A DNA stretch of 64,000 nt from Dehalococcoidia bacterium (GCA_965242675.1 CBDESW010000039.1:20122-84121); one strand, 5' to 3'. Shown: positions 5,397 to 61,623, numbered from the stretch's first letter. The notes: generated from the letters alone by a model not told the origin. Made by a program: numbers and translations.

Positions 5397-5405
5397 GGCG
5401 GGCGC

Positions 5406-7838: not shown

Positions 7839-7869
7839 TATAGCGCTTCCTTTCCGCGACGGCGTAAAT

Positions 7870-7928: not shown

Positions 7929-7936
7929 GCCGCGCA

Positions 7937-9960: not shown

Positions 9961-9998
9961 ACGGCGGCGAATCGGCGAATCATCTAGGGAGCGAGAAA

Positions 9999-10790: not shown

Positions 10791-10799
10791 GAGCGGAAA

Positions 10800-11591: not shown

Positions 11592-14068
11592 TACCCCTCT
11601 CCTGGCTCAAAAAATACGTCCCCCTATCCGATTCCCCCGCCGCGCTTGCTCACAAGCTCACTATGGCGGGGACCGAAATCGGCGGCGTCCGCGTCATCGG
11701 CGCGGATTGGGACGCGGATAAGGTCGTCGTGGGCGAGGTTTTGCGCGTTGAGCCGCATCCGAACGCCGACCGCCTGCGGTTGCCGACGGTGGATTTCGGC
11801 GGCGGACGGACGGCGACCGTCGTCTGCGGCGCGCCGAATGTGGCGGCGGGGCAGAAAATCGCCTTCGCCCAAGAGGGCGCGGCGCTCTTCAGCCCGCGCT
11901 CCGGCAAGACCGAGACGCTCAAGCGCGCCCGGATTCGCGGCGTGGAATCGCGCGGGATGGTCTGCTCGTCGCTCGAATTGGGGCTTGGCGAAGACCACGA
12001 CGGCATCCTCGTTCTCGACGCCGGCGCCCCCGTCGGCGCGCCGCTGGCGGACTATCTCGGCGACGCCGTTCTGGACGCCGAAGTGACGCCCAACCGCCCC
12101 GATTGCCTTTCCATCTTGGGAATCGCCCATGAAGCGGCGGCGATTGGCGGCGCGAGCGTCTCGGAGCCGGACATTTCCTACCCCGAAGAGGGCGAGCCGA
12201 TAGAGAATCTGGCGACGGTCGAGATAGCCGACCCCGATCTCTGCTACCGCTACACCGCCAGCCTAATCGCGGGCGTCAAGATGGGCGATTCCCCCAAGTG
12301 GATGCAGGACGCGCTCATCAAGGCGGGCCAGCGCCCCATCAACAACGTGGTGGACATCACCAACTACGTGATGCTGGAGTACGGGCAGCCGCTGCACGCC
12401 TTCGACTTCGACAAGTGCCGCGACCGGACGATTATCGTCCGCCAGGCGCGCGCGGGCGAGACGCTGGTCACGCTCGACGGCGAACGGCGCGAGCTGCGCC
12501 CGCCGATGCTGGCGATAGCCGATTCGCAAGACGCCATCGGGCTGGCGGGAATCATGGGCGGCGCGAACTCGGAGATGGACGAAAACACGCGGACAGTGTT
12601 GCTGGAATCCGCCAGTTTCGCCCCGGTGAACACGCGCTTGACGCGGACGGCGCTCGAGTTGCGAACGGAGGCGTCCGACAGATTCGAGCGCGGCATACGC
12701 TCGGTGCTCGCCCCAATCGCGCTGCGGCGGGCGACCAAACTCATCGTGGAGCTGTGCGGCGGAGTGGCGGCGAAGGGCGTCATAGACCTCTACCCGACCA
12801 AGCGCGAGCCGCCCGCGCTGAGCCTGAGCCGCGCGCGAATCCGTCAGGTGCTTGGCGTGGATTACCCCATGCCGCAAGTGCGGCGCGTGCTGGAATCGCT
12901 CGGATTCGAGGAGACGGACGCGCCCGGCGGACTGATAGACCTGATAGAAGCGGTCGAAGCCGCGCCCGCGCCGGAGCGCGCCGATGCGCTGTGGGTGAAA
13001 GTCCCCTACTGGCGCTCGGACATCTCGATGGAAGACGACCTGGTGGAAGAAGTGGCGCGAATCATCGGCTACGACTCGTTGCCGGCGACGATGCTTTCGA
13101 CGCCGATTCCGAACCGCCCGCCGCAGCCCGTCGCCGAGATTAAAGACGCATTGCGCGACATGCTCGCCGCCGCCGGGATGCAGGAAACCATATCGTACTC
13201 GCCGACCACGCTTGAAGATTTGCGGAAGATAGGCGCGCTGGACGAATCCAACCCGCCGCTCCGCATCGCCAACCCGCTCAGCAGCCGCTGGGAGTACATG
13301 CGGACGAGCCTGCGCTCCAGCGTCCTGAACACGCTCGCCTACAACCGCCGCCTCGCGCAGGGCGAGGGCATACGCATCTTCGAGGTCGGGCGCGTCTATA
13401 TCCCCAAGCCGGATGCGGAAGGGGACGGTCTGCCGGACGAGCTGGAAATGGCGGTCGGCGCCTTCTCAGGGCCTCGCTTCCCCGCCTCATGGCTAGCGGA
13501 CGAGGACGACATGGGCTTCTACGACGCCAAAGGCGCGCTGGAGTCGGTATTCGCCGCTCTGAATCTGGACGCGGCGTTCGAGCCGGCGGATGGCGACCCG
13601 GTTCTGCGCCCAGGACGGGCGGCGAGCGTAACCGCCGGCGGCGTCCATCTGGGCGTCGTGGGCGAAGTGCGGCGCGAAGTCCTGGCGGGCTTCGGCTTGG
13701 AATCGCGCCCGGTCGCATTGTTCGAGCTGAGCGCGGCGTCGCTGCTGGCGGCGCTCGGCGGCGCGGGCGTCTCATACGAAAGCGCCAGCCGCTACCCGGA
13801 GTCTTACCGCGACCTCGCCATCGTGGTGGACGCGGACGTGTCCGCCGCCCGCATGCGGCGGATAATCGAGCGCCACGCGCTGGCGGTCCGCAGCGCCCCG
13901 TTCGACATCTACGCCGGCGAGGGCGTGCCGGCGGGGAAGAAATCGGTCGCCTTCCGAGTGGCGTTCCAATCCGACAGGGGGACGCTCACATCCGAGCAGG
14001 TCGACCGCTTCCAGAACGACATACTGCGCCAACTGCGCCGAGAGCTGGGCGCGGAACTGCGGGGCTAA
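11585..14068 (+). CDS. pheT: Phenylalanine--tRNA ligase beta subunit
   Basis: 827-aa ORF starting MLIPLSWLKKYV, with tRNA-binding, B3/4, B5 and FDX-ACB-like segments in canonical order. Confidence 0.95.
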   Translation: MLIPLSWLKKYVPLSDSPAALAHKLTMAGTEIGGVRVIGADWDADKVVVGEVLRVEPHPNADRLRLPTVDFGGGRTATVVCGAPNVAAGQKIAFAQEGAALFSPRSGKTETLKRARIRGVESRGMVCSSLELGLGEDHDGILVLDAGAPVGAPLADYLGDAVLDAEVTPNRPDCLSILGIAHEAAAIGGASVSEPDISYPEEGEPIENLATVEIADPDLCYRYTASLIAGVKMGDSPKWMQDALIKAGQRPINNVVDITNYVMLEYGQPLHAFDFDKCRDRTIIVRQARAGETLVTLDGERRELRPPMLAIADSQDAIGLAGIMGGANSEMDENTRTVLLESASFAPVNTRLTRTALELRTEASDRFERGIRSVLAPIALRRATKLIVELCGGVAAKGVIDLYPTKREPPALSLSRARIRQVLGVDYPMPQVRRVLESLGFEETDAPGGLIDLIEAVEAAPAPERADALWVKVPYWRSDISMEDDLVEEVARIIGYDSLPATMLSTPIPNRPPQPVAEIKDALRDMLAAAGMQETISYSPTTLEDLRKIGALDESNPPLRIANPLSSRWEYMRTSLRSSVLNTLAYNRRLAQGEGIRIFEVGRVYIPKPDAEGDGLPDELEMAVGAFSGPRFPASWLADEDDMGFYDAKGALESVFAALNLDAAFEPADGDPVLRPGRAASVTAGGVHLGVVGEVRREVLAGFGLESRPVALFELSAASLLAALGGAGVSYESASRYPESYRDLAIVVDADVSAARMRRIIERHALAVRSAPFDIYAGEGVPAGKKSVAFRVAFQSDRGTLTSEQVDRFQNDILRQLRRELGAELRG

Positions 14069-14125
14069 CGGCGGCGCGCGTTCGCGTTCAGCGCCCGTCC
14101 GTCAAGGCTGGGCGGCGCTCGGCGC

Positions 14126-15328
14126 TTACCCGTCCGCCGCCTTTTCGCCCGCCAGCCCTTCGCGCTCCATCACTCGCGCGGCGCGCTCGTGGCTGTTTAT
14201 CGCGCTTGTCCGCGCGTCGGCGGCGCGCTTCCAGGTCTCGCGGTTTTCGTTGACGAACTTGTACGACTCCAGATAGCCGTCCAGCATCCCGTTGACTTGC
14301 GGGACGACGTACCGCGCCGCCAAGTCCCAGCTTCTCAGGGTGTCTTCGCGGTTCGCCCAGTCGTGGACGAATCCGACCACGCAGCCGAAGCCGCCGGTCA
14401 GCTCCATCATCTCGCGGATGCGCGCCGTCAGGTCGTCCGGCGTGCCTATCACCGCCGTGCTTTCGTCCGAGAACGCCACGTCGTCCACCGCTTCATCCGG
14501 CGTCTTGTAGATAGGCCCTTCGCCCGCCGCCAGCGTGCCGACGGTGTATTCGTTGTTGTGGCGCATCAGTCCATCCCGCGCCTGCTTTCGCGCTTCCTCG
14601 CGGCTTTCGGCTATGTGCCAATTCATCACGATGCGCCAATTCCTGCGGTCAACAGTCTTGCCGTGTTTGGCGGCGGATTCTTCCGCGAAGCTCCACTGGA
14701 GCGGCAGCGAGCGCATCCCCGCCCGCGTCATCGAGCCGATGGACAGAACGCCCGCCTCGTGCTTGCCGGCGAGCGTCATGCCGGAGGGCGTCACGATGGA
14801 CGCGACGGCGAATTCCATGCGCTCCTGAAGCGGCTTGAGCTGCAGGCGGGCGTCGCGCAGACGGAACCAGTCCGATTCGTAGCTGAAGCGCTCGTCCGAC
14901 TCGAACAGTCGGCGGATTACCCCCATCGCCTCATCCTGCCGGTCGCGCAGGAGCATCGGATCCATGCCCAGCATGTGGGCGTCGGACGGCAGGGCGCCGG
15001 GGCCGGAGCCGAAAATGGCGCGCCCGCGCGACTGGTGGTCGAGTTGCGCCATGCGCTGGGCGACCATGAACGGGTGGTGATAGGGCAGCGAAACGACGCC
15101 CGTGCCGAGCATGATTCGCTGCGTCCGCTCGGCGGCGGCGGCGAGGAATACCTCCGGCGAGGCTATCACCTCCCAGCCGGTGGAGTGATGCTCGCCGCAC
15201 CAGAACTCGTCGTAGCCGAGATAGTCCAGCCGGCGGACGAACTCCAGGTCGTTCTGGAGCTGCAGCGTCGGGTTTTCGCCAATCGGGTGATGCGGCGCGA
15301 GAAAAGCGCCGAAACGCAGTTTTGCCAT
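14126..15328 (-). CDS. LLM-class flavin-dependent oxidoreductase (luciferase-like monooxygenase)
   Basis: 400-aa ORF. MAKLRFGAFLAPHH..GYDEFWCGEHHS..LGTGVVSLPYHHP are typical of the bacterial luciferase-like family. Confidence 0.8.
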   Translation of the reverse strand: MAKLRFGAFLAPHHPIGENPTLQLQNDLEFVRRLDYLGYDEFWCGEHHSTGWEVIASPEVFLAAAAERTQRIMLGTGVVSLPYHHPFMVAQRMAQLDHQSRGRAIFGSGPGALPSDAHMLGMDPMLLRDRQDEAMGVIRRLFESDERFSYESDWFRLRDARLQLKPLQERMEFAVASIVTPSGMTLAGKHEAGVLSIGSMTRAGMRSLPLQWSFAEESAAKHGKTVDRRNWRIVMNWHIAESREEARKQARDGLMRHNNEYTVGTLAAGEGPIYKTPDEAVDDVAFSDESTAVIGTPDDLTARIREMMELTGGFGCVVGFVHDWANREDTLRSWDLAARYVVPQVNGMLDGYLESYKFVNENRETWKRAADARTSAINSHERAARVMEREGLAGEKAADG

Positions 15329-15418
15329 TTTGGGGATACGCCTTTCGTCGGGTTGGTTGAAAATCGGTCAAGGCTATTCTAGGGGATTCGGGCGGTCGGG
15401 GGTTAGCCCCCCTTTCCA

Positions 15419-15660
15419 TTCCGTCATTCCCGCGAAAGCGGGAATCCAGAAAGCGGCTGGATCCGCGAATCCGGAACGCCCCGCGCGCAAAGCCGCGCTT
15501 GCGCGCGGCTCACCCTCACCCTAGCCCTCTCCCATCAAGGGAGAGGGGATGCGTTGGCTTCAGTTCAAGCCTGATTTCAAGCGGCGGTCTTGTCCCCGCT
15601 TTCGCGAGGATGACGTTGTTGGTCGACTCTGGATTCCCGCCTTCGCGGGAATGACGGGGG
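15419..15660. repeat. Cluster of modular intergenic repeats (D inverted, then A-B-C-D)
   Basis: ccgtcattcccgcgaaagcgggaatccaga, then caccctcaccctagccctctcccatcaagggagaggggat + gcgttggcttcagttcaagc.. + ttgtccccgctttcgcgaggatgacgttgttgg + tctggattcccgccttcgcgggaatgacgggg. Confidence 0.9.
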
Positions 15661-15775
15661 GATGGAGAAGGAATTTGTCTCCCCATCCCCGCCTAAAACG
15701 CGCGCTTTCGCAACCGCCAATGTTGTGGTATATTGAAACCGCATCCCCAAACGAACAGGCGCGGAGGGCAGACCG

Positions 15776-17233
15776 ATGGCGAACGACGCGATGACGACCG
15801 ACAAGACCGATCTGAAGCTGATAGCCCACTTGACGCGGCGCGCCGGCTTCGGCGCGGACAGAGCGCGGCTGGAGCGATACGCCGAGAACGGCTACGAGGC
15901 GGCGGTGGACGAACTGCTGAACGCCCCCGACCGCTCCGAAATGCCCGACGACCTCATCCGCCGCTACCACCACGAGCAGTCGGGGATGATGGGGCAGATA
16001 GCCCCCGGCTCGAACTGGCTCTACAAGCTGTCGACCTCCGCCGACCCGCTGCGCGAGAAGATGGCGCTGTTCTGGCACGGCATCTTCGCCACGGGCTACC
16101 CGAAAATCACGCAGGGGAAGGTGCTGAGCGACCAGATCCGCATGTTCCGCCGCTACGGGATGGGGAACTTCCGCGATCTGCTCCTGCAGCTCGCCAAAGA
16201 CCCGGCGATGATTGTCTGGCTGGACAACCACGACAACCGCAAGGGCGCCATCAACGAGAACTTCGGGCGGGAGCTGCTGGAGCTCTTCTCGATGGGCGTG
16301 GGCAACTACGATGAGGACGACATCAAAGAGGCGTCCCGCGCCTTCACCGGGTGGACGATTGACAACACCGAGTACATGGCGCTGCGGGCGATGCGCGATT
16401 CCATTTGGCCCTACGGCAGACTCGCCTGGCGATTCCGCTTCGACGAGGGCGACCACGACGGCGGCGAGAAGGAATTTCTGGGCGAGCGCGGCGATTTCGA
16501 CGGCGATGCCATCGTGGACATCATCTGCCGCCAAGAGGCGACGGCGCGGTTCATCGCGCGGCACATGTACCACTTCTTCGTCGCGGACGAGCCGCCCGTG
16601 CCGCAGTGGCCCTACGCGGAGCCGCGCGACCCGGACGCCATCGAGACGCTCGCCGCCGCCTACTTCGAGAGCGAAGGCGACATATCCCAGATGCTCCGCG
16701 TTCTGTTCACTTCGGACTTCTTCAAGTCCGAAGACTGCCGCTACGCCCGCGTCAAAAGCCCGGCGGAGTTGGTCGCCGGCGTCCTGCGCCTCACCGGCGA
16801 ATTCGACCGCCCCAGGCGGCAGATAATCGACCGCCAGCAGCAGATGACTTGGATGGGGCAGTTCCTCATCAACCCGCCGTCGGTGGAGGGTTGGACGGAA
16901 GGGCTGAATTGGATAGACACCGGCGCGCTGGTGGAGCGCGTCAACTTCGCGTCCGAGCAGATGGGCAACGCCGAGCGCCCCGGAATCCGCGCCATCATCG
17001 AGCGCGTGGCGACCGACGGCGGAGCCGCCATCGCCCCCGACAGCCTAGTCGACCGCTGCCTGGACGAGATGGGCATGATGGAGGTGTCCGCCGAGACGCG
17101 CGACCGCCTAATCGCCTTCGCCGCCCAAGAGGGCGACCTGACGGCGGGCGCGGAAGTGACGCCGGAATCGGAGCGCCGCGTGTCGGGCTTGCTCCGCATA
17201 ATAGCCGCGACGCACGAATTCCAGCGGGCTTAG
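15776..17233 (+). CDS. DUF1800 domain-containing protein
   Basis: 485-aa ORF. LTRRAGFGA..MALFWHGIFAT..ENFGRELLELFSMGVGNY..FTGW are DUF1800 hallmarks. Confidence 0.8.
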   Translation: MANDAMTTDKTDLKLIAHLTRRAGFGADRARLERYAENGYEAAVDELLNAPDRSEMPDDLIRRYHHEQSGMMGQIAPGSNWLYKLSTSADPLREKMALFWHGIFATGYPKITQGKVLSDQIRMFRRYGMGNFRDLLLQLAKDPAMIVWLDNHDNRKGAINENFGRELLELFSMGVGNYDEDDIKEASRAFTGWTIDNTEYMALRAMRDSIWPYGRLAWRFRFDEGDHDGGEKEFLGERGDFDGDAIVDIICRQEATARFIARHMYHFFVADEPPVPQWPYAEPRDPDAIETLAAAYFESEGDISQMLRVLFTSDFFKSEDCRYARVKSPAELVAGVLRLTGEFDRPRRQIIDRQQQMTWMGQFLINPPSVEGWTEGLNWIDTGALVERVNFASEQMGNAERPGIRAIIERVATDGGAAIAPDSLVDRCLDEMGMMEVSAETRDRLIAFAAQEGDLTAGAEVTPESERRVSGLLRIIAATHEFQRA

Positions 17234-50342: not shown

Positions 50343-52631
50343 CTATCCCCCGTTCGCCGCCCCCGGCGTCGGCGCGCTCACCGTTCGGAATTCCCCCGTT
50401 GCGTCGGGGACGCGGGCGTATGATGTCCCCCCGTCCGAGTCGCCGTCTTCCCAGTCCACCGAATCCACCGGCGCGCCGTCCGCCGTCCATACGCCCAGCT
50501 CTTCGTCGGAGCCTAGGGCGAAGCCGGGCCAGGCGTCTTTGTCCAGCTCGATTCGCAGATATTCCCCCGGCGCGATAGCCATGTCGGGCGGGAAGGGGAC
50601 GCGCTTGGACGCGTCGGCGAGGTCGTCCGCGAATACGAAATCGGCTAGGGCGATATGCGAATCCGTGTAGTTATGCAGCTCGAACCAGTCCAGCGGGTCG
50701 CCTTTGGCGGCGATTTCGTTGATTGCCAAGCCGATGGCGGGCGCGTCGGCGTCGCCAGTCGTCGCGGACGGCGGCGGCGATGATGACGACGTCTGAGCGG
50801 GCGGCGGCGCGACGTAGCCCACGGCGCCGATGAATTGGGCGGAAATCGGCGCGCCCGGTTCGGCGGACGCTTCCGAGAGGGTGAGCGCGCCCGTCGATAC
50901 TGGCAGGAACTCGCTCGGCTCCGCCGCGCCGGGGGGGATGCGCCAGACGCCGCCGCCGATTTCGTCCGCGCCGAAGGCGAGCGTCTCGCCGTCCGCCAGG
51001 CGCGGCGCGGGGAATGTGAGCGTCAAGCCCTGAATCGCGCCGTCCGCCGCGTATCCCAAAACGGTGAGCGAGACGGCGTTGTCGATTCTGAACGCCTCGC
51101 GCTCATCCTCGCCCGCCTCGCCGGCGATTGCGCCGATGCCGTCCGCGGGCAGCTCCGCGCCGTTGAAGGCGAAGCGGGTTATTTCGCCTTCCGCGAACGG
51201 GTTGGGGCTGTCGCTCGTCCCCCAGACGGCGCTGAAGCTCAGCTCCATCTCGCCGGGCGCCAGCTCGCCCCAGGCGGCGACCGCCTGCCCGCCGCCGTCG
51301 GGCCACTCCGGCGGCTGGGGGCGCAAGTCGGCTAGAATCGCCGCGCGCCGTCCGCGTATGAACTCGCGGACGCGCTCCGCGCCCTTCTCGGCGGCGGCGC
51401 GGTTTTTCGGCAGGGCGCGGCTTTGGACAATCGCCGCCATTTCGTCCGCCAGCGCGATGAGCGCGTCTTCGTCCCAGACCGCATCGAGAAGCGCGTTCAG
51501 GCGCGCGACGTAGGCGGCGCGCGATTGCGGGTCGTTGTACAGCCGGTTGGCGAGCGCCCCGTTGGCGAGAACGGACAGCGGCGGCTCCGTCACGTCGTCA
51601 AATGGGTTGGGGTCTTTCTCGTCGTCCGAAAACACTTGGTCGACGCCCCAGGGGATGAAAATGAACGCGCCATCCGGCTCGCGATAAAACCAGTAGTTGT
51701 TGCGGTTGCCGGCGTATCCGTCCCAGTGGGCGATGATTACTTCCAGCGCCCAGAAAGTGAGGAAGCGGTCTAGGTCGACGGCGTCTTTCACGGCGTCCAA
51801 GCCGGCGGCGGACGGGTCGGCGAGAGCGGCGGCCAGGGCGTCTATGTCCGACCAGTCGTCCGCGCCCGAATTGGTTTTCTTCTCGAAAGTGCCGCGATAA
51901 GTCGGGTTGAAATCGCTCACCGTGCCTTCGTAGAGATTGCCGTCCGGGTCTGCGAATACGCGCGCCAGCATGGAGTGTTCGATGTCCTCGACATTGGCGT
52001 ACACGCCCAGATTTTCGCCGTTGACGGATACTGTGGCGAAGTTGCATCGCGGCGCGGGATAGTCGGCGGCGGCGAAGGCGGCGAACGACATGCAAGTCGC
52101 GATGAGCGAATCGTCCTGAACGCCGTTGTTGAGCGTCATGCGCTCCAAAACGCCGCCGAGCGCCTTGCCGTCCGCGTACTTGTCGAAGCGTATCTTGAGC
52201 GACGGCTTGACGTCGCTCTGCGAGCCGACGAACCCTTTTTTGCGGACGCCGACGCCGGAATGGGTTTCGCCGTCGACGGTCACGTCGGCTTGGAACCAGG
52301 TGTAGATGTCCGCGAACGGCTGCGAGAGGCGGTTCTCGGCAATCTCGGCGAAGACGTCCTCCAGAGTGCGGCTTTGGCTGCGGAGCGCGTCCCAATCCTC
52401 CGGCGCGATTCTTATGGATATGTCCAGAACCCGGTCTAGGGCGTAGTAGTCGCCGGCGGGGGCGGTTGAAGCCGGCGGCGGCGGCGTATTCGGCGCGGCG
52501 GCGTCGGGGCGTCCGCAGGCGGCGGACATGGCGGCGAGCGCGAGGGCGGCGAGCGCCGTCCAAAAAATCGGGCGCGCGTTTAGGGGACGGGCGATGATGA
52601 TGGGCTCCTTATTCGGCGTCGGGGGCGTCAA
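50343..52631 (-). CDS. CotH kinase-family protein with a C-terminal lamin-tail-like domain, probable lipoprotein
   Basis: ..KPSLKIRFDKY..LNNG.QDDS..FWALEVIIAHWDGYAGNRNNYWFY.. (CotH). C-terminal INEIAAKGDPLDWFELHN..GEYL..LG..DE..SY (LTD-like). LAAMSAAC lipobox. TTG start as listed. Confidence 0.75.
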   Translation of the reverse strand: MTPPTPNKEPIIIARPLNARPIFWTALAALALAAMSAACGRPDAAAPNTPPPPASTAPAGDYYALDRVLDISIRIAPEDWDALRSQSRTLEDVFAEIAENRLSQPFADIYTWFQADVTVDGETHSGVGVRKKGFVGSQSDVKPSLKIRFDKYADGKALGGVLERMTLNNGVQDDSLIATCMSFAAFAAADYPAPRCNFATVSVNGENLGVYANVEDIEHSMLARVFADPDGNLYEGTVSDFNPTYRGTFEKKTNSGADDWSDIDALAAALADPSAAGLDAVKDAVDLDRFLTFWALEVIIAHWDGYAGNRNNYWFYREPDGAFIFIPWGVDQVFSDDEKDPNPFDDVTEPPLSVLANGALANRLYNDPQSRAAYVARLNALLDAVWDEDALIALADEMAAIVQSRALPKNRAAAEKGAERVREFIRGRRAAILADLRPQPPEWPDGGGQAVAAWGELAPGEMELSFSAVWGTSDSPNPFAEGEITRFAFNGAELPADGIGAIAGEAGEDEREAFRIDNAVSLTVLGYAADGAIQGLTLTFPAPRLADGETLAFGADEIGGGVWRIPPGAAEPSEFLPVSTGALTLSEASAEPGAPISAQFIGAVGYVAPPPAQTSSSSPPPSATTGDADAPAIGLAINEIAAKGDPLDWFELHNYTDSHIALADFVFADDLADASKRVPFPPDMAIAPGEYLRIELDKDAWPGFALGSDEELGVWTADGAPVDSVDWEDGDSDGGTSYARVPDATGEFRTVSAPTPGAANGG

Positions 52632-52766
52632 CCCGCCTATTTTGCCAAAGGGGGCATGGCGAAAACCAGCGGCGAAAAGCGCGCGTCCAAGCTGGCGGCG
52701 GACGGGGCCGCGTCCTCAAGATTCCCACGCAAGCCGCCGTCGGGGGGTTATGCGGGGAACTTTCAA

Positions 52767-54060
52767 GTTGCAATGGGGCCAACACCTTTCAGCGTTGAAT
52801 ACAGATTACGCCGCTACCATCAAAGGCGCGATGCTCCAACTGCAATGGGGCCAACGCCTTTCAGCGTTGGATACTCATCTTGGCGGGGGTAATCGGGTCG
52901 CAGATAACGACGCTTCAATGGGGCCAACGCCTTTCAGCGTTGGATTCAATTTCATGGAACAAGAGGTGTACCAGATTCGCTACGGACTGCAATGGGGCCA
53001 ACGCCTTTCAGCGTTGGATACTTCCAGTGCACTCAGTGCGACCTGCCGATGGGCGACGGGTGGTTGCAATGGGGCCAACGCTTTTCAGCGTTGGATACCC
53101 TGGGGCTGGCGACGGTCGGGACGGTCATGGAAGGGCTGCAATGGGGCCAACGCCTTTCAGCGTTGGATACACATTCGCAAGAGAGTCGACCGCGCTGTCT
53201 CCTCGGGTCTGCAATGGGGCCAACTCCTTTCAGCGTTGGATACTCAGCATGTACAAAATCCGACAGGTCCGCGGATTCACGCTGCAATGGGGCCAACGCC
53301 TTTCAGCGTTGGATACGTGGAGGGCGAGCTGGAATTCTGGCGCACGAACAGCGAGCTGCAATGGGGCCAACGCCTTTCAGCGTTGGATACGCCCTGGACT
53401 TGGACGGCGAAGCGCATAGCATCGTCCGCCATTCAGGTGCTGCAATGGGGCCAACGCCTTTCAGCGTTGGATACGAGAGCGCAGCTGCACATCGCGGGGA
53501 TAACCGAAAAGCTGCAATGGGGCCAACGCCTTTCAGCGTTGGATACGCCACTACGAGGCGCAATTCCGCGTCGGGTCGACTGCCGCTGCAATGGGGCCAA
53601 CGCCTTTCAGCGTTGGATACTCCTCGGGGATGGACAGGGCCCAAGCCGAATCCGCCGTGCTGCAATGGGGCCAACGCCTTTCAGCGTTGGATACTTTCAG
53701 CGTCAATCTCGAAGGCGGGCGGTGGGCGACGCTGCAATGGGGCCAACGCCTTTCAGCGTTGGATACGCATCGAGCGGGTGTGGAGCCGATTCGCCCGCCG
53801 ATACATGCTGCAATGGGGCCAACGCCTTTCAGCGTTGGATACTCCACTTCGTCCGCGAACCCCACCGCGGCGGTGGTCGCTGCAATGGGGCCAACGCCTT
53901 TCAGCGTTGGATACTTATGGAAGGCGACGCGCGGCAGCTGGCAGGGGCGGTGCTGCAATGGGGCCAACGCCTTTCAGCGTTGGATACGGGACGCGATCAG
54001 ACCCATCATTGGCGCGGTCGCGGCGCTGCAATGGGGCCAACGCCTTTCAGCGTTGGATAC
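52767..54060 (-). CRISPR. CRISPR array: 18 x 36-nt repeats, 17 spacers (36-48 nt)
   Basis: + strand consensus: GCTGCAATGGGGCCAACGCCTTTCAGCGTTGGATAC. Transcribed sense: GTATCCAACGCTGAAAGGCGTTGGCCCCATTGCAGC, with a 7-bp stem CCAACGC/GCGTTGG and 3' ATTGCAGC. Repeats 8-18 are identical. Repeats 1, 3, 5 and 7 at the left end carry internal substitutions, and repeats 1-5 and 7 vary at their first 1-3 bases. Confidence 0.97.
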
Positions 54061-54329
54061 AGTGTTTTCGCCGCGCTTTTCGCTCATTATAGCGCTTTGG
54101 GGCGGACGAATTTCGCCATTTGACGCTCGGCGGCTGGTTTTCGGACCGAATCAAGGCATTTTTTCGCCGCCCGGAGACCGTTTTCGCCCTCTTTTTTGCG
54201 AACGCGAACGCTTGGGATGTTCACCGCCGGAGCGTTCGCATCGCTGTTTTGGCGATTGCGTGGGTTTCCCGCGCGCTTGGCGCGGCGGGGGATATTCGGC
54301 TGTGAAATCTGCGTCCGGCGGCTGTCGCA
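54061..54329 (-). promoter_or_regulatory. Putative CRISPR leader, with a TATAAT box at 54091-54086 about 25 nt upstream of the first repeat
   Basis: Lies between the last cas gene and the non-degenerate end of the array. The minus strand reads ..aaagcgcTATAATgagcgaaaagcgcggcgaaaacact|GTATCC.. Several A/T runs. No convincing -35. Confidence 0.45.
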
Positions 54330-55607
54330 TCACAGGGTTAGCGTCATCGGGGGCCAGCGGGGGATTTCGGATTCCTCGACGTCCAGAACCTCCAGCGCGG
54401 CTTGCCGGAAATTTTCGAACGTTCTTTGGGACACCGGTATCAAGCCGTGCGCCAGCAACGATTCGTTTCGCGCGGTCAGATGCTTCTTGAGCAGGTCGTA
54501 TTTCGCGCCCTGTTCGCGCAGGCTTTCGTATTCGCTGAACTGCAGGGCGGCGTAGAGGTTTTGGACGCCGAGCAGGAAGATTCCGTTTTCGTCCGGGTCG
54601 CCGAACATGGCTTTGGCGTCCGCGCGGCGGTTGGCGGGGAAGTCGTCCGGGCTTATCTTGCCCAGCTCCGCGCCGAAGGCGGCGCGCGCCAGTTGCTGGC
54701 CTCTCAGCTCCACCGCTCGGTACAGCCTGCCGGTGGCGTCGTCGTAGCGCGACTGCGCGGCGCGGCGCTCGGCGTTCGCCAGCAACTCCAGCAACGTCTC
54801 GCGCCCCGGCGTCTTGGGCGTCTTGACGTTCGCGTTTATTTGGTCGGCGGCTTTGAGCCATCCGCCGGACAACTCCGCCAGGCTTTCGAACGCGGCGCGG
54901 TCGAGCGTGTACTCCAGCACGGTGCGGGCGCGACCGAATGTGTTGACCGCGTCCCGAAAACTGAACGAGTCCGCTTTGCCGAGCGCTTCGGCTAGGCGCG
55001 CGAATCCCCTTATCTTGTTCTTATGCTCCGGGTCGCACTTGTTCGCCGCTTCGTCCAGAATGTCGGCGGCGGCGTCCGCGTGATAGCCGGACAGCAGGTC
55101 GTTGGCGCGCTCCAAGTCGCGGGCGGCGTACTGGTTCCACGGGTTTTGAGACGGTATCACCGCTTCCGTTCCGTCCAAGACGACCCCAAGCCCGCCCTTG
55201 TCTCGCCGCTCGCCGCCCACGTAGGTGAACGCGCTGAACCGCTCCACGCCCGCCAAGACGAGCGCCGCCGACATGGTTTTCGTGCCGCCGGTGTAGTCGA
55301 CATAGACCGATTCCGCCGCCATCCCGACGCTGCCGAGCCACTCGCGCATCGCGTCCCGCATCTCGCGGTAGCAGTCGCCGATGCTCTCGTAGTCGGTCAA
55401 CGTCAGCGTCTGGCACTGCGGGATGTAGTCCAGGGCGGGCAGAATCTCGTTCTCGATCAGCGGTTTCGTGCCTTCCGACGCCGCGAACAGGATGAAGTCC
55501 GGCTTCCGCCGCGCTATGGCTTTGATGACGGGCGCGGGCGTTCCCCCGACGCTAATCACCAGCCCTCTTTTCAGTCCGTCGGTCATGAGTATTTTTCCTT
55601 TTCCCAA
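54330..55607 (-). CDS. CARF-HEPN ancillary effector (Cas02710/Csm6-Csx1-like)
   Basis: N-terminal ..LVISVGGTPAPV..YVDYTGGTKTMSAAL.. (CARF). C-terminal ..LTARNESLLAHG.. (R-x6-H HEPN motif). The alternative start ATG 55586 overlaps the csm4 stop (ATGA). Confidence 0.75.
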   Translation of the reverse strand: MGKGKILMTDGLKRGLVISVGGTPAPVIKAIARRKPDFILFAASEGTKPLIENEILPALDYIPQCQTLTLTDYESIGDCYREMRDAMREWLGSVGMAAESVYVDYTGGTKTMSAALVLAGVERFSAFTYVGGERRDKGGLGVVLDGTEAVIPSQNPWNQYAARDLERANDLLSGYHADAAADILDEAANKCDPEHKNKIRGFARLAEALGKADSFSFRDAVNTFGRARTVLEYTLDRAAFESLAELSGGWLKAADQINANVKTPKTPGRETLLELLANAERRAAQSRYDDATGRLYRAVELRGQQLARAAFGAELGKISPDDFPANRRADAKAMFGDPDENGIFLLGVQNLYAALQFSEYESLREQGAKYDLLKKHLTARNESLLAHGLIPVSQRTFENFRQAALEVLDVEESEIPRWPPMTLTL

Positions 55608-56542
55608 ATCATCGGCAGGGCGAGCGCGAAGGCGGGTTGGAGCGGGCGGACGTCCATTTCGGCGAGGCGGCGGCGGTCGCCCTCGCTCAGCAACCGTTCG
55701 GGTTCGATGGCGGTTCCGTAGAACGGTCGCGGAGCGCCGCCGACGTGGAAGCAGGCGCCGGGTTCGAGCATCGCCTGCGGACGCTTGAAAATCGCAGCCG
55801 ATTGGAACTCCGGCGCCATCTTGCCGTACTTGACGAACGTGCGCCAGCAGCCTTCGGTGGGGTCGGAAGGCGCGGGCTGGTAGGTCGAGAGCGAAACGAA
55901 GGCGTCCGCGCCGGGGACGTCGTCCAAATCCGGGCGCGGCTTCGGGTCGCCGTCCAAATCGAACGCGCCGTATCCGCTGGTCGCCCGCGCGCCGTATCCG
56001 GTTCGCCCCAGCGTCTCGAGCGCCTCAAGCAAGACCGCCAAGCCGTCGGAGGCGGCGCGGGCGTAAACCGTCAGCCGCCCGTCCGCGTCGTCCAGCTCCG
56101 AGTAGCGGACTTCGAACAAGCCGTCCGATTCGGCGGCGGAGTCGGTGAGGCGCGAGATCGAGTTTCGCATCCGAACGCCGTCGCGCGTGGACGCTATCGG
56201 CGCGTCGCCGTTCTTGGGCAACGGCGGCTTGCGTCCGCTCTGCGTCTCGCGGAAGGCGCCGGCGGAGAGCAGGCGCGTCTTCTTCACCGCCTTGCGCGCG
56301 CTCGGCTGCCAGTCCATGAGCGGCAGAATGGCGGGCGCGGGCAGGGCGTCGCCGGGGAAGGCGTCCGAGAGGACGAACGGCGGCTCGCCGGCGCGCCACG
56401 GGTCGAGGAAGTCGCGCCGCAGGGCGTCCGCGCCGCGCGAGCGCGCCCAAGTCGCCGCCAGCGCGCCGAGCAGCGAATCCGCCCGCCACGCCGTGACCCA
56501 CGCCCCGACCGGCTTCAGCGCTATTGCGACCAGATTGTCCAC
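55583..56542 (-). CDS. csm4: Type III RAMP, Csm4 (Cas5-group) like
   Basis: ..RADSLLGALAATW..PPFVLSDAFP..LGRTGYGARATSGYGAF.. (G-rich loop). GTG start. Confidence 0.7.
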   Translation of the reverse strand: MDNLVAIALKPVGAWVTAWRADSLLGALAATWARSRGADALRRDFLDPWRAGEPPFVLSDAFPGDALPAPAILPLMDWQPSARKAVKKTRLLSAGAFRETQSGRKPPLPKNGDAPIASTRDGVRMRNSISRLTDSAAESDGLFEVRYSELDDADGRLTVYARAASDGLAVLLEALETLGRTGYGARATSGYGAFDLDGDPKPRPDLDDVPGADAFVSLSTYQPAPSDPTEGCWRTFVKYGKMAPEFQSAAIFKRPQAMLEPGACFHVGGAPRPFYGTAIEPERLLSEGDRRRLAEMDVRPLQPAFALALPMIWEKEKYS

Positions 56543-57199
56543 GTTTCGCCATCCATCTTGAAGTCATGGAAGCTGATTTCGCCCGACCCGCGGCTGATTC
56601 CACCGCCGAGTCCGGTGCTTTGGACGAGCAGCAACCCGTCCGCGACGACCGCCTGCAGCGCCTCGCCGCCCTCGCGGGACGCGCCGCTCATGTCGTCGTA
56701 CTTGAACTTGGCGTCGTATTCGAACACCTGGAGCGCGATTTTCATGCGGAACTCCGCGCCCGCCGCCACGCGCTCATTCGAGCGCGGATGCTGTGCGGAG
56801 CCTGCGCCGGTCGATGACGTTCTCCGTCTTGTTTTCTATGCGGAAACCGCCCGCCATGCTGCCGTCGCGGACGATTATGCGGGACGGGCCGAGCTCGCTC
56901 CGCGTATTCATGTGAGCGCCGAACACGCGGCATATGGGGCAGTCCGCGCCGGCGCATCCGCACGGTCTGTCGCCCTCGCTTTCCCCATTGCGCCCGAACT
57001 TTCCTAGCTTCTTTTCGAGCTCGCCGCGCATCTTGCCCTTCAGCGAGGAGCCGGGGATGTACGGTTCGCCGTTCGCGGGGTTTTTGATTACGGGGTTGTC
57101 CGCGCCGCCGATGGCGAGCTCGTCTTGGGAGCCGCCGATGTGCAAGCCGCTCTCGCAGCGCGCGGTGAAGGTTATGTCGTGGATGCCCGTTCTTATCAT
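56521..57199 (-). CDS. csm3: Type III Cas7 RAMP Csm3, reading frame broken once (~56800-56806)
   Basis: ORF 56774..57199: ..GLHIGGSQDELAIGGADNPVIKNPANGEPYIPGSSLKGKMRGELE..CPICRVFG..ENVIDRR. It continues in ORF 56521..56769 as GSAQHPRSNERVAAGAEF..GLGGGISRGSGEISF after a 1-nt shift. Confidence 0.75.
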
Positions 57200-57217
57200 C
57201 GTTCGCGGACCTCCTTT

Positions 57218-57811
57218 CTATCCTCTGTCTCTCATGTAAGCCGCGCCGAAGCCGATGAGCGCCTCGAAGTGCGGCAGGAAGCCGCGCAGGAAGGCGTCGC
57301 CGGGGTCGTCCGACGACGCGACTCGCCGGACGTTGTCATCGATGAAGGTTTGGAACTCCGCCGGTATCTTGCCGCCGCTTTCGGCGTATTGGGCGTGATA
57401 CCGAAGGCCGTCGAACTCCGCCGCCACGCTCTGCCAGCTTTCGCCCTCCACTTGCATCCGCCGCTCGATTTCGCGGCAGTGGTTGAAGAACCGCCGCGCC
57501 TGCCCGGTGGTGAGGTTGGGATAGGCGTCCCTAGCCAGCGCCCGCGCCAAGCCGTCCATGTTCTCTTTGGACACGAAATCGGTTCGCAGGCAGAGTTTGC
57601 CGCCGTCGTCCGGCGCGAAATAGGCGTCCGGGAGTTTCGGCATGTTCACGGGTCGGCGCTCCCGCCCGCCGCCGCGATTGCCGCCGCCGCGATTGCCGCC
57701 GCGATTGCCCCGATTGGGCGGTCTAGCCATGTCGTCTCTCCTTTCCGGTTCTTCCGACTCTTCCGGCGGCACGTCGATCCCCGCCCTGCGAAAGGCGTCT
57801 CTCATCGCCAT
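57218..57811 (-). CDS. csm2: Type III small subunit Csm2 (Cas11) with an N-terminal RGG-rich extension
   Basis: ..NLTTGQARRFFNHCREIE..LRYHAQYAE..FLPHFEALIGF.. (Csm2-like), preceded by PPNRGNRGGNRGGGNRGGGRERR. Strong RBS GGAGAGGG. Confidence 0.65.
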   Translation of the reverse strand: MAMRDAFRRAGIDVPPEESEEPERRDDMARPPNRGNRGGNRGGGNRGGGRERRPVNMPKLPDAYFAPDDGGKLCLRTDFVSKENMDGLARALARDAYPNLTTGQARRFFNHCREIERRMQVEGESWQSVAAEFDGLRYHAQYAESGGKIPAEFQTFIDDNVRRVASSDDPGDAFLRGFLPHFEALIGFGAAYMRDRG

Positions 57812-57853
57812 TGTTCTACCCTCTCCAGTGTATCATCTTGTCCGATTGTCCGC

Positions 57854-59383
57854 TTATCCGCGCGTCGCCAGAAGCGCGTATCGGAGGCTTGCGGATATTT
57901 CGTTCGCGCGAATCGCGTCGCGCTCCAAAGCGAGCGCCGCTTCGGTTGACCAGCCGCGGAACTCGGCGGTTCGGCGGTTTCGGGGGACATTGCGATTCGT
58001 CTGATACGTCCATCGCGCCGCCCGCGTCGGCTCGTCGCTTTCGGCGAGGCGCAGAAGGCGGTGCAGCAGCGAGCGCGACATTCCGTCCAGTTCGCGCGTC
58101 CACCGCGCCAGTTTCTTGCCCTCGCCAATCACCAAGCCGTGATACTCCCAACTCCAGATGGATTCCAGCGCCGCGCAGCCGTTCTTGCCATCCCGCGCCT
58201 TCGCCTTCGTCTCCAGCGCGTCCGCCCGCTCCGCGGCGTGGCGAACGGGCAGGCGGTACGGGAACAGCGCGATTCCGGCGCTCAGGGTCAGCGGGGCGCT
58301 GATGGTCGGGGGCGCGTATTTGCGCGCCGGACCGTCCTCGAACGCGCTCGCCAGTTCCCCCGCGAAATCAAGCGTCTTGTCCCAGGGACCTATCAGAAGC
58401 AGGTCGTCGCCGCCCGCGTAGATGGTGTAGATGGAGCGCCAAGATTCGGCGAGCATGTCCTGAACCGTCTCGGCGAAGAACGCATGCAGGTCGCGGCTGA
58501 ACGCCTTGAGCGTCGCGAGGGACGGGTCGGCGGCGGCGATTTCGCCGACTCGGACGCCCATGTCGTCCACATCCGCCTTGAGGGCGGCTAGGCGCTTGTC
58601 GCCGGCGGCTTGCTGGGCGATTTCCTCGAAAGTCAGCGGTTCGCGTCCATTGTCGGAGCGCGGTATCCATCGCCCGGCGCGGAAGGCGTCGGGCGTCCCC
58701 GCGTCCGCCGCGCCGAAAGTCGCGCCCAGCGCCTCGATGCGGAATCCGCCGCCGCGCGCGCCGCCGCCGGATGGTTCGCCGCCGGGTTCCAGGACGCGCA
58801 TCCACTCCAAGCCCGTCAGCCGCTCGCCCAGGTCGCGCGCCTTTAGGCAGGCGGCGCAGTGCAACTCGCCGCTATCCGCGTCGCCGTCCGCGTCTTGGAC
58901 GCGCCGCTGACCGGGGGCTTGTCCGCAGACTTCGCATGGGTCTCCGAGCGGGGGCAGGCTCATGCGCTCGGCGCTCCACGCGCCGCCGTTTTGGAGCGAG
59001 GAGAGCGCGGGGCGCCGCTTGCGCCTCTCCAGCCGCGCGCGGGCGTCTTCCGGCGTCTCGCCCCAGACCAGCGACGCCTGAACGCCGCCGCCCGTCTCGT
59101 CCCAGACCATGCGCTGCAGGTCGGCGTTCAGCTCATCGACGGCGCGCCTGTCCGCGTCGCCGTCCGCCCGCGCCAGAAAGCCGCCGCCGCCTCGGATGAG
59201 AACGTCGTCCTCCGAAATCGCCAGCCGCTCTTTCGCTTTGGCGAGCGCGGCGCACTCGAACAGTTCAAGCAGAAAAGACCTCGCGCGCAACCGCTTCGCC
59301 TGCGCGCCGCCGGCGCTTTTGACGCCCAGCACATAATCCTGTATGCCCGAAAAGTCGCCCGCGAGATAGATGGGTTCGCTCAT
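57854..59383 (-). CDS. cas10: Cas10 (Csm1-like) lacking the N-terminal HD domain; cyclase GGDD intact
   Basis: Starts MSEPIYLAGDFSGIQDYVLGVKSAGGAQAKRLRARSFLLE (start of Palm1 in other Cas10s). CEVCG..CAAC zinc finger and IYAGGDDLLLIG. Only 509 aa. The start overlaps the upstream stop (ATGA). Confidence 0.8.
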   Translation of the reverse strand: MSEPIYLAGDFSGIQDYVLGVKSAGGAQAKRLRARSFLLELFECAALAKAKERLAISEDDVLIRGGGGFLARADGDADRRAVDELNADLQRMVWDETGGGVQASLVWGETPEDARARLERRKRRPALSSLQNGGAWSAERMSLPPLGDPCEVCGQAPGQRRVQDADGDADSGELHCAACLKARDLGERLTGLEWMRVLEPGGEPSGGGARGGGFRIEALGATFGAADAGTPDAFRAGRWIPRSDNGREPLTFEEIAQQAAGDKRLAALKADVDDMGVRVGEIAAADPSLATLKAFSRDLHAFFAETVQDMLAESWRSIYTIYAGGDDLLLIGPWDKTLDFAGELASAFEDGPARKYAPPTISAPLTLSAGIALFPYRLPVRHAAERADALETKAKARDGKNGCAALESIWSWEYHGLVIGEGKKLARWTRELDGMSRSLLHRLLRLAESDEPTRAARWTYQTNRNVPRNRRTAEFRGWSTEAALALERDAIRANEISASLRYALLATRG

Positions 59384-60243
59384 GCTTCTTCCTTTTCCCG
59401 GATTCCGCAGGCTGACTGCGGCGAAACTTCTTTTTGCCGGTCGTCGTCCGTCTGAGGCGTGAACAAGCCAAGCCCGTAGTGGCAGGCGAAGCCGAGCGCG
59501 ACGGGTCCGGCGACGGGTTTATCGAATTCCACGCTGAAATTGAACGCGCCGCCGCCGTTGGAGCCTTTGCGCCGGTATCGGAAGAAGTCGAACGGTCGGA
59601 ATCCCGCGAAATCGCCCGCCGGCGCGATGGGGGCGATGGGCTTGCGGACGTCGGCGAACTCGGCGCTTATCAGCCGCGCGTCGGGGAATCGGCGGTTGGC
59701 TTCGCGCGTTATCTGCTCTTTCGCGCCGTCCACCAATTGGCGGCGTCCGTCGGCGTCTTTCGGACCGCGCAACTTGGCGTGGCGCGGGGGGACGTAAGGG
59801 GACGCCGACCGCCAGCGCGCGGCGCGTCCGAACGGCGGGGATTCCGCCGCGAAATCCTCCGCCCGCCCGCTCGCCAGATGCGTCAGCCGCGCCGGTTCGC
59901 GCCCGCGTCCGGGGTTCAGCTCGCGCAGGGATTCCACCGCCGCCAGATCGTCCGCCTCGAAGCCGAACGGCGTCCAGACGGTCAGACGGTCAATATCGCC
60001 GTCGCCGTCCTCGTCGGTGGGCAGATAGAAGGCGTGTCTGTGTCCGGTCAACGGCTTGCCGTCGGCGTCTTTGCCGGAGAGGGTCGGGGAAGGCGCGCCG
60101 CCGTTCATGCGTCCGAAGCGCGCCATCGCCGCCGTCCGCGCCAGGTCGCCCCACCGCGCCGCGTCCGCCAACGCGGGCGGGACGCCGCTCCGCAAAGCGA
60201 ACCGAACCGCCGTCGGCTTGGCGCGGTCGTTGGGAACGTCCAT
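59380..60243 (-). CDS. RAMP-like protein resembling the C-terminal (Cas6-like) portion of type I-G/I-U Csb2 (GSU0054 family)
   Basis: ..LSGKDADGKPLTGHRHAFYLPTDEDGDGDIDRLTVWTP..S.SPYVPPRH..FFRYRRK..FSVEF..GPVALGFACHYGLGLF.. From memory this is the Csb2 pattern. The N-terminal GRYHA..EWPPSP half of full-length Csb2 is absent. Confidence 0.5.
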   Translation of the reverse strand: MDVPNDRAKPTAVRFALRSGVPPALADAARWGDLARTAAMARFGRMNGGAPSPTLSGKDADGKPLTGHRHAFYLPTDEDGDGDIDRLTVWTPFGFEADDLAAVESLRELNPGRGREPARLTHLASGRAEDFAAESPPFGRAARWRSASPYVPPRHAKLRGPKDADGRRQLVDGAKEQITREANRRFPDARLISAEFADVRKPIAPIAPAGDFAGFRPFDFFRYRRKGSNGGGAFNFSVEFDKPVAGPVALGFACHYGLGLFTPQTDDDRQKEVSPQSACGIREKEEA

Positions 60244-60420
60244 CGCGGAACCTCTCTTTATATATATGCGGCGCTTCGCGGAATTAGCCTATCAAGGGCA
60301 TTGTATGATGGATTGGCGGAAGGCGCAAGTTTTGGAGCAAATCAAGCGCGGCTTGTCGCATAACGCCGCCCCAATCCGCTATCATTCACGGCGAACGCAT
60401 ATCACAGGAAAGACACTCAC

Positions 60421-61623
60421 ATGACCACTGCGACAACCCTGCCGGACGCGCGGGGCAGATTCGGCGAGTTCGGCGGGATGTTCGTCCCCGAGACGCTCAT
60501 GGGGGCGATTGGCGAGCTGGAATCCGAGTACCGCGCGGCAAGGGCGGACGGCGGGTTCCGAGACGCGCTCGAATCGCTGGCGCGGGACTACGTCGGGCGT
60601 CCGACGGCGCTCTACTACGCCGAGAACCTGACGCGCGAGCTGGGCGGGGCGCGCATCTTCATCAAGCGCGAAGACTTGGCGCACACGGGGGCGCATAAAA
60701 TCAACAACGCGCTGGGGCAGGGGCTGCTCGCCCAGCGCATGGGCAAGCGCCGCGTCATCGCCGAAACCGGCGCGGGGCAGCACGGCGTCGCAACCGCCAC
60801 CGTCTGCTCCACGCTGGGGCAGGATTGCGTGGTTTACATGGGCGAAGAGGATATAAAGCGCCAGTCGCTCAATGTGTTCAGGATGCGGTTGCTGGGCGCG
60901 GAAGTGCGCTCGGTGACCAGCGGCAGCCGAACGCTCAAAGACGCCATCAACGAAGCGATACGCGACTGGGTGACGAACGTCGAGACCACGCATTACCTCA
61001 TCGGCAGCGTCGTGGGCCCCCATCCGTATCCGATGATTGTGCGCGATTTCCAGGCGGTGATAGGGCGCGAGGCGCGGGCGCAGATTCTGGCGGCGACGGG
61101 GCGGCTTCCCGATTACGCCGTCGCCTGCGTGGGCGGCGGGTCTAACGCCATGGGGCTGTTCTACGAATTCATCGGCGACCCGGATGTGAAGCTGGTCGGC
61201 GTGGAAGCCGGCGGGCGCGGCATCGAAAGCGGCGAACATTCCTCCACCCTGACCGCCGGCGACGTCGGCGTCCTTCACGGTAGCATGTCGTATCTTCTGC
61301 AGGATGAAGACGGGCAAATCCGCGAGGCGCACAGCATATCAGCCGGTTTGGACTACCCCGGCGTAGGCCCTGAACACAGCTGGCTCAAGGACACCGAGCG
61401 CGCCGAGTACGCCAGCGTGACGGACGAGCAGGCGCTGGCGGGCTTCGAGCTGCTCTGCCGGACGGAGGGCATCATCCCCGCGCTGGAGCCCGCCCACGCC
61501 GTCCACTACATATCGCAGCTCGCGCCGCGATTGGGCGGCGACAAGACGATTCTGCTGTGCCTGAGCGGGCGCGGGGACAAGGATATAGACACTGTGGCGC
61601 AGGCGCTGGGGGTGGGGACATGA
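60421..61623 (+). CDS. trpB: Tryptophan synthase beta chain
   Basis: ..[48 protein letters not shown].. are canonical TrpB motifs. Confidence 0.95.

Follow-up and report, generated by a model that had tools for sequence, protein, structure and literature searches.

Can a Csm-type CRISPR-Cas effector do without Csm5, the subunit thought to cap the complex and direct 3' maturation of the CRISPR RNA (crRNA), and which enzyme would then cut its repeats? The question is raised by a compact type III module at positions 52767-60243 of a 64,000-nt stretch of DNA from a Dehalococcoidia bacterium (GCA_965242675.1 CBDESW010000039.1:20122-84121), the whole of which we call the window. On the minus strand a cas6-like gene is followed by a cas10 without an HD domain, csm2, csm3, csm4 and a CARF-HEPN gene, then by a 269-nt leader and an array of 18 repeats (Table 1). 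A first-pass annotation had taken the locus for an atypical, reduced type III effector. We consider it probable, judging from the sequence, that this is a compact III-A-like Csm module, a variant that recurs in many uncultured bacteria and lacks both Csm5 and the Cas10 HD domain, and which would use a Cas6 derived from the type I-G protein Csb2.

Results

The head gene as a predicted Csb2-lineage Cas6

The protein encoded by the head gene matches the PADLOC profile Cas56g at positions 223-448 of 449 (E 2.6e-54) and the Csb2 profile TIGR02165 at positions 249-491 of 492 only, which bears out the earlier impression that it is half of a type I-G protein. Aligned with 32 homologues, it starts at the point where Csb2 homologues of about 490 aa begin their second domain, and it is 52-61 % identical to the aligned full-length Csb2 proteins. 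A histidine near its C-terminus, His255 in LGFACHYGLG, is invariant in the 33 sequences. No PDB chain was matched by the head protein in sequence or profile searches. An AlphaFold2 model was obtained with a predicted local distance difference test score (pLDDT) of 84 and a predicted template-modelling score (pTM) of 0.82, and its top six Foldseek matches in the PDB are all Cas6 proteins (5yi6, 3pkm, 4z7k, a Cas6b, 4c9d, 3ufc and 3i4h; probability 0.82-1.0, TM-score 0.39-0.49 normalised to the target); Csm5 was not matched by the model in the same comparison.

The repeats were then read in the direction of the cas genes. The repeat has the form GTAT-CCAACGCT-GAAA-GGCGTTGG-CCCC-ATTGCAGC: a hairpin of 8 bp (-12.2 kcal/mol), the 4 nt CCCC and the 8 nt ATTGCAGC. 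The stem covaries over 10 loci, with 98.8 % of the cells paired and compensatory changes at 6 of the 8 pairs; none of 500 shuffles reached the observed score and slid controls were only 27-48 % paired. The tail CC(C/T)CATTGAAGC is likewise conserved across loci. In T. sulfidiphilus Csb2 the C-terminal domain alone binds and cleaves repeat RNA in vitro (Shangguan et al., PMC9638904); it resembles Cas6b, uses a C-terminal histidine (H503) and cuts 4 nt 3' of a 7-bp stem, leaving an 8-nt handle (PMC9638904). The repeat of the window fits such a Csb2-type substrate, with a hairpin, a predicted cut 4 nt 3' of the stem and a predicted 8-nt handle.

The double-RRM Cas6 fold of the model, the conserved histidine, the repeat geometry and the published biochemistry of the Csb2 C-terminal domain together give strong support to the head gene as the predicted crRNA-maturing Cas6 of the locus, in which the C-terminal, Cas6 part of type I-G Csb2 stands by itself. 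The first-pass annotation had suggested that a borrowed Cas6-like protein might mature the crRNA, and this idea is strongly strengthened by the modelled fold and the analogy with Csb2; its statement that the locus has no cas6 does not stand. The annotation had also allowed that the head gene might prove to be an ordinary Cas6, and this came half true: the protein is predicted to be a Cas6, one of an unusual Csb2 lineage.

Gene content of the module

All genes of the module score above curated family cut-offs in TIGR, Pfam and PADLOC profile searches, and these profiles type them as III-A. The six co-directional, tightly packed genes described earlier are present as minus-strand open reading frames (ORFs) with junctions as described, except that csm3 consists of two ORFs in different frames. 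Between 54330 and 60243 the ORFs are joined by overlaps of 4-25 nt or gaps of at most 42 nt; in gene order the junctions are a 4-nt overlap of cas6 with the start of cas10, a 42-nt gap, an 18-nt gap, a 22-nt overlap and a 25-nt overlap, the last being 4 nt if ATG 55586 is taken as the CARF-HEPN start. No ORF in this interval is left unassigned, and Csm5 profiles gave only weak, sub-threshold matches to the Csm3 N-terminus, in agreement with the earlier claim that csm5 or any second Cas7 is missing. The motifs quoted in that description all occur in the translations, although the Csm3 string IDRR.GSA..PR..ERV reads across the frameshift.

Cas10 scores 241 bits against the TIGR02578 equivalog (cut-off 170) but only over profile positions 232-753. 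Its best PDB relatives are all Csm1; in the alignment with T. onnurineus Csm1 (PDB 6kc0), its residue 6 falls opposite residue 235. It carries the Palm1 motif SGIQDYV, two CxxC pairs (Zn-finger cysteines) and GGDD at about residues 324-327. Since the first 4 nt of cas10 overlap the end of the upstream gene, the lack of an HD domain is real; the protein starts at Palm1 and keeps the cyclase motif, as had been proposed. The lack of an HD domain had been listed as unusual, and here the proposal fails: of all type III loci 39 % have the domain and about 61 % lack it, and for III-A loci the shares are 65 % and about 35 % (PMC11229360), so that HD-less Cas10 is common.

Csm2, the small subunit that marks subtype III-A, was recognised by TIGR01870 (38.3 bits, cut-off 30.6) and PF03750 (34.9, cut-off 24.8) over residues 85-192. 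Its residues 1-80 (57570-57811) form an Arg/Gly-rich extension, RGNRGGNRGGGNRGGGRERR, with an RGG stretch arising from 12/15-nt tandem repeats at 57666-57709. This tail is variable, the tblastn match beginning only at about residue 56 in several relatives, and it may be RNA-binding. Csm4 was identified by TIGR01903 (73.3 bits, cut-off 55) and by PADLOC (Csm4, E 7.7e-49). The last gene product reaches 199 bits with TIGR02710 and E 2.7e-70 with the PADLOC model CARF1--CARF_HEPN, and it contains a Pfam Csm6 HEPN domain (residues 265-408) with the R-x4-H motif RNESLLAHG; no PDB relative of this protein was found at E <= 0.001.

The frameshift in csm3

The two csm3 ORFs, 56774-57199 (141 aa) and 56521-56769 (82 aa), match the N-terminal and C-terminal halves of TIGR02582, the first with 105 bits (cut-off 90). 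As reference we used the csm3 of L036 (relatives are referred to by L numbers), an intact gene of 222 aa, 93 % identical, on a syntenic metagenome contig. A DNA alignment with it places a 2-bp deletion, CGGCGCA--GGCTCC, between 56803 and 56802, with a premature stop at 56774-56776. If csm3 is intact and the frameshift an assembly error, CGGCGCAGCGGCTCC would be expected within 56780-56830. The catalytic-Asp context is kept, Asp34 lying in GGADNPV.

A programmed or phase-variable frameshift was ruled out, because csm3 is in frame in 22 of the 25 genome relatives carrying both halves and in L036, L037 and L039; moreover the site is no simple repeat. The three exceptions (L020, L023 and L027) are broken or differently arranged elsewhere. 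In L038, a 10x long-read contig, csm3 is frameshifted at the homologous site (about 12330-12367), in a GC-rich AGCGGC stretch, and the shared position suggests a systematic or local assembly error or a mutation hotspot. Between the window and L036 the ratio of nonsynonymous to synonymous substitution rates (dN/dS) is 0.25-0.45 across the cas genes, including cas6 and the repaired csm3 (0.28), higher than the 0.10 of trpB. As csm3 resembles the other cas genes in this respect, any inactivation must be very recent or else an assembly artefact; the window copy may thus be either freshly inactivated or mis-assembled at csm3.

Array and leader

The leader and the array of 18 repeats had been described correctly; the repeats are 36 nt long and separated by 17 spacers of 36-48 nt. 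Repeats 1-11, on the leader side, are identical and repeats 12-18 carry 1-3 substitutions each, a pattern that indicates fairly recent spacer addition. An adaptation module was therefore available recently and has since been lost, or acts in trans. The leader has a TATAAT about 35 nt upstream of repeat 1 and is conserved with that of L036 over the first ~60 nt only; the L036 array (15946-16863) begins a mere 58 nt past the CARF-HEPN stop codon. BLAST of the spacers of the window and of L036 against the window and all loci revealed no shared spacers and no self-targets, and a scan of the repeat against metagenome contigs gave no match. Plus-strand ORFs at 52528-54490 (up to 531 aa) were rejected as genes: they are translated repeats with the recurring peptides MGPTPFSVGY and LQWGQRLSALDT.

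A module that recurs inside and outside type I-G loci

A genome scan with Cas10 yielded 27 close loci at 39-60 % identity, from Dehalococcoidia, Latescibacterota, Opitutales, Rhodothermales, Bryobacterales, Binatia, Vicinamibacterales, Spirochaetia, Longimicrobiales and Terriglobia. Two contigs (L012 and L015) end within csm3. The other 25 loci, which do not end at a contig edge, have contiguous cas10 (~490-510 aa), csm2, csm3 and csm4, usually with a CARF effector; csm5 is absent from all 25. L020 and L027 are degraded: cas10 is interrupted and csm3 broken or missing. Together with the metagenome contigs L036-L039 and L041 this makes 33 further copies from many phyla, four of them partial or degraded; the 29 that are complete leave no space for csm5 and gave no match to it. 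A protein search with Cas10 returned 227 clusters, and the 120 that were listed are nearly all about 470-540 aa long, with one 307-aa fragment, i.e. nearly all HD-less as judged by length.

The loci fall into four architectures. Architecture A (nine loci: L002-L004, L007, L010, L018, L022, L025, L026) has the order cas3g-cas8g-cas7g-csb2-[III module]-cas4/cas1-cas2-array, with one cas4/cas1-cas2 set and one repeat type. Architecture B (six loci from four phyla: L001, at 4512-17095; L005, at 5842-16804; L006, L008, L013 and L021) combines the III module and cas4/cas1-cas2 with a long Cas3g (~930-1017 aa) and a protein of the 'type I-G Cas3-extension family' NF049934 (310-319 aa, labelled Cas8g by PADLOC). 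No Cas7g or large Cas8g was detectable in these six loci, of which L001 and L013 alone have Csb2; the six may represent a Cas3-using type I/III hybrid. Architecture C comprises the window, L036, L037, L038, L039, L041 and L009, seven loci of type III only with a stand-alone Csb2-lineage Cas6 of 266-297 aa, whose gene may be first, internal or last. In L009 the module is accompanied by cas4/cas1 and cas2 as well, and the array there counts at least 58 repeats. In architecture D the module is an orphan: no csb2 and no array lie within 10 kb of it.

The search for the same gene order proposed in the first-pass annotation was thus productive: the module recurs, and its reduced form with a stand-alone Cas6 is found in six other contigs. 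The locus had been presented as an oddity; it is instead one form of a widespread module that normally lies inside type I-G loci. By gene content the locus apparently derives from a composite of types I-G and III and is now type III only, the Cas6 domain being all that is left of csb2.

All arrays adjoining the modules have the type I-G repeat design, except that of L023. This locus (11204-14260) carries three tandem copies of csm2 (apparently fused, in a 527-aa ORF), two csm3 paralogues and an array with 28-nt repeats, and it is the only module among those examined with a second Cas7. In the Latescibacterota loci L004 (13628-14698), L005 (13623-14696), L008 and L021 a CARF-RelE/DUF2103 protein (CARF7) takes the place of CARF-HEPN, and the ancillary effector slot is therefore exchangeable. 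In L040 (9001-17546) a stand-alone Csb2-lineage Cas6 of 272 aa heads a III-B operon of CARF-HEPN, cmr1, cas10/cmr2, cmr3, cmr4, cmr5 and cmr6; the split Cas6 thus occurs outside the Csm variant, too.

Surroundings of the module

Table 1. Features of the type III module in the window
Feature	Coordinates	Strand	Basis
predicted cas6, stand-alone, Csb2 C-terminal-domain lineage, 287 aa	59380..60243	-	PADLOC Cas56g, TIGR02165, AlphaFold2/Foldseek
cas10/csm1 without HD domain, 509 aa	57854..59383	-	TIGR02578; Pfam Cas10-Cmr2_palm2 and Csm1_B
csm2/cas11, 197 aa, Arg/Gly-rich N-terminal extension	57218..57811	-	TIGR01870, PF03750
csm3/cas7, disrupted by a 2-bp deletion	56521..57199	-	two ORFs matching the halves of TIGR02582
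csm4/cas5, 319 aa	55583..56542	-	TIGR01903; PADLOC Csm4
CARF-HEPN effector, Csm6/Csx1-like, 425 aa	54330..55607	-	TIGR02710; Pfam Csm6 HEPN; PADLOC CARF1--CARF_HEPN
leader, from CARF-HEPN stop codon to first repeat	54061..54329	-	sequence reading
CRISPR array, 18 repeats of 36 nt and 17 spacers	52767..54060	-	repeat GTATCCAACGCTGAAAGGCGTTGGCCCCATTGCAGC

The module is a small chromosomal island. It is flanked by a CotH/LTD protein gene on one side and a TrpB-like PALP gene on the other, with GNAT and FAA-hydrolase genes beyond, and L036 shows the same synteny around its module. A PADLOC scan of the 64 other ORFs of the window detected no Cas1, Cas2, Cas3, Cas4, Cas6, Cas7 or Cas8, in line with the earlier statement that cas1/cas2 are missing. 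Among these ORFs (window 1-50000) there were single PADLOC matches to mad3, mad8, PDC-S48 (two models), AriA (two models), HEC-01A, a DEDDh exonuclease and an oxidoreductase model.

Discussion

How well does the reading as a compact Csm module with a Csb2-derived Cas6 hold against the rest of the evidence? Several points weigh against it. S. epidermidis depends on Csm5 both to mature its crRNA and for immunity. With csm3 frameshifted, the backbone subunit of the window is, as read, truncated and the system would not work. Adaptation genes are absent from the ORFs of the window and from within 10 kb of its syntenic relative L036. The array of L036 is degenerate, its repeats often mutated even next to the leader and in part with compensatory changes in the stem; this degeneracy suggests that the lineage is decaying. 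A strict sigma-70 scan of 52500-60500 gave no full promoter, and no spacer target emerged when three spacers were scanned exactly against viral contigs. Finally, His255 would correspond to H503 of T. sulfidiphilus Csb2 by position only.

Some of these points could equally describe a decaying, non-functional remnant of a composite type I-G and III locus, with csb2 truncated by deletion, cas3, cas8g, cas7g and cas4/cas1-cas2 gone, csm3 a pseudogene and the array a fossil. The csm3 deletion and its counterpart in L038, a window devoid of adaptation and type I genes, the clear degradation of L020 and L027 and the mutated repeats of L036, a close relative, are all in its favour. We nevertheless regard a remnant as unlikely, since the same reduced architecture is found with intact genes in L036, L037, L039, L041 and L009, and since the presence of the Cas6 gene in three different positions among the reduced loci argues for its retention by selection. 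The truncation falls exactly at the Csb2 domain boundary, the dN/dS values make any inactivation very recent, the eleven identical leader-proximal repeats speak for fairly recent growth of the array, and the cas genes, with a GC content at third codon positions (GC3) of 0.81-0.88, do not differ in this from the neighbouring host genes. The recurrence of the reduced form with intact genes argues for a selected, working arrangement and not for random debris.

A second alternative concerns the role of the Cas6 rather than its presence. The Csb2-derived protein might also be a stable subunit that remains on the 3' hairpin of an untrimmed crRNA and caps the Csm3 filament instead of Csm5, in the manner of Cascade. 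Csm5 is missing from all 29 further complete modules as well as from the partial ones, and the Cas6 gene overlaps cas10 here and adjoins it in L001, L009, L022, L036, L037, L038 and L041. Csb2 itself stays on the 3' hairpin in the type I-G Cascade, its C-terminal domain holding the cleaved hairpin tightly (PMC9638904). Yet in L011, L014, L016, L017 and L019 the module, likewise without Csm5, has neither csb2 nor a Cas6 gene within 10 kb of it, and the stand-alone Cas6 also occurs in L040 beside a III-B module with its own Cmr1/Cmr6 caps. We find such a cap rather improbable.

A bolder version would make the Csm module a dedicated partner of type I-G and more than a III-A system housed in a common locus; the Cas6 tail cap would replace Csm5 and Cas3 would be recruited as DNase in architecture B, giving a true I/III hybrid effector of which the window would be a Cas3-free offshoot confined to RNA and signalling. 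We give this version little credence. The last possibility, an ordinary III-A locus whose csm5, HD domain and cas6 are missing through assembly or annotation errors, could appeal to the one csm3 frameshift, which may be an assembly error, but it is effectively refuted by the architecture conserved in relatives: the coding space is full and could take in neither csm5 nor an HD domain, the upstream stop codon is followed at once by the Palm1 part of Cas10, and the same gene set and sizes occur in 29 independently assembled complete modules. A conventional full-length locus, which the first-pass annotation had thought sequence correction might restore, is thus very unlikely.

For the compact Csm module with its Csb2-derived Cas6 we propose the following mechanism. 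Transcription of the array would start in the leader and run co-directionally with the cas genes. Cas6 would bind the 8-bp repeat hairpin and cut 4 nt downstream, yielding crRNAs with the 8-nt 5' tag ATTGCAGC, as predicted because of the repeat geometry and the published Csb2 biochemistry. By homology, Cas10-Csm4, a Csm3 filament and Csm2 would assemble on the crRNA. The conserved motifs suggest that upon binding of a complementary transcript Asp34 of Csm3 would cleave the RNA and the GGDD palm of Cas10 would make cyclic oligoadenylate, which in turn would activate the CARF-HEPN RNase. The locus encodes neither a DNase nor adaptation genes; its spacers may have been acquired before the loss of cas4/cas1-cas2, or via a type I-G-type adaptation module elsewhere in the genome. 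As to the role of Csm5, Csm3 may simply end the filament, or Cas6 may stay on the 3' hairpin as in type I-G Cascade. The locus had been called a reduced, signalling-only effector. Reduced it is; with the Asp34 context of Csm3 kept, target RNA cleavage is to be expected and only the DNase would be missing.

Comparison with known systems

The window shares with the type III-A systems of S. epidermidis, S. thermophilus, T. thermophilus and M. tuberculosis a GGDD-containing Cas10/Csm1, Csm2, Csm4 and a CARF-HEPN protein; its csm3, although split by the deletion, keeps the Asp context. It differs from them in lacking Csm5 or a second Cas7, the HD domain and cas1/cas2, in having a predicted Cas6 of the Csb2 C-terminal-domain lineage instead of a canonical one, and in its type I-G style repeat, which is expected to be cut 4 nt beyond the stem. 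The M. tuberculosis-type operon has the order cas6-cas10-csm2-csm3-csm4-(csm5)-csm6, with which the gene order of the window agrees. With type I-G Csb2 of T. sulfidiphilus (PMC9638904) the likeness lies in the homologous C-terminal Cas6 domain and in a 36-nt repeat in which a stem of 7-8 bp is followed by 4 nt and by a handle, predicted in the window, of 8 nt. The genes that accompany the window protein are those of type III and not Cas7g, Cas8g or Cas3g, and in place of a full-length Csb2 accompanied by these proteins, as in type I-G, only the C-terminal half is found.

The III-B system of Haliangium ochraceum was reconstituted with csb2 as its Cas6 (bioRxiv 10.1101/2023.06.23.546230). It too is a type III effector relying on pre-crRNA processing by the Csb2 family, of which L040 shows the stand-alone form beside Cmr genes, but it has a Cmr complex with its own cap subunits and SAVED-CHAT/PCaspase effectors. 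Composite type I and III loci with a common adaptation module are known (Bernheim et al., PMC7145637); compared with these, all that the window retains of type I is a single domain, and neither a type I-G/III-A pairing nor a Csm5-less module is described in the text of that paper. III-A2 (Makarova et al. 2025, PMC12669027), as its main text presents it, is likewise a reduced III-A-like form with a cyclase-active Cas10 and a catalytic Cas7; it is without Cas11 and often has NucC, whereas the window has Cas11/Csm2 and is without Csm5. III-A2 is the only III-A variant named in the main text of the 2025 classification, its supplementary tables aside (PMC12669027).

The first-pass annotation had left room for a match to a catalogued subtype. 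The genes do type as III-A, with csm5 lacking, and III-F and III-A2 were ruled out on gene content. Type III-D, which is marked by a Csx10-type Cas5, several distinct Cas7 genes and Csx19, was rejected as well: the Cas5 here is Csm4 (TIGR01903), there is a single Cas7, and III-D Cas7 and Cas10d profiles match weakly. Merged type I and III loci, csb2 as a III-B Cas6 and HD-less Cas10 are already known. In the open-access literature, the supplementary tables of the 2020 and 2025 classifications aside, we found no description of a natural Csm5-less III-A system, and in the open-access literature searched none of a split Csb2 or of a specific type I-G/III-A composite.

Implications

If our reading is correct, a Csm effector can assemble and signal without Csm5. 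With five effector-complex or processing genes and one ancillary nuclease this would be a small type III system, which might suit reconstitution. The most interesting lead lies outside the window, in the architecture-B loci, where Cas3g stands beside a Csm module without type I backbone genes. The fused type I subunit Csb2 would be splittable, its Cas6 domain alone serving a type III system, a case of natural domain fission via module sharing. The loci would then form a graded series from a full type I-G plus III system through Cas3-only plus III to type III only.

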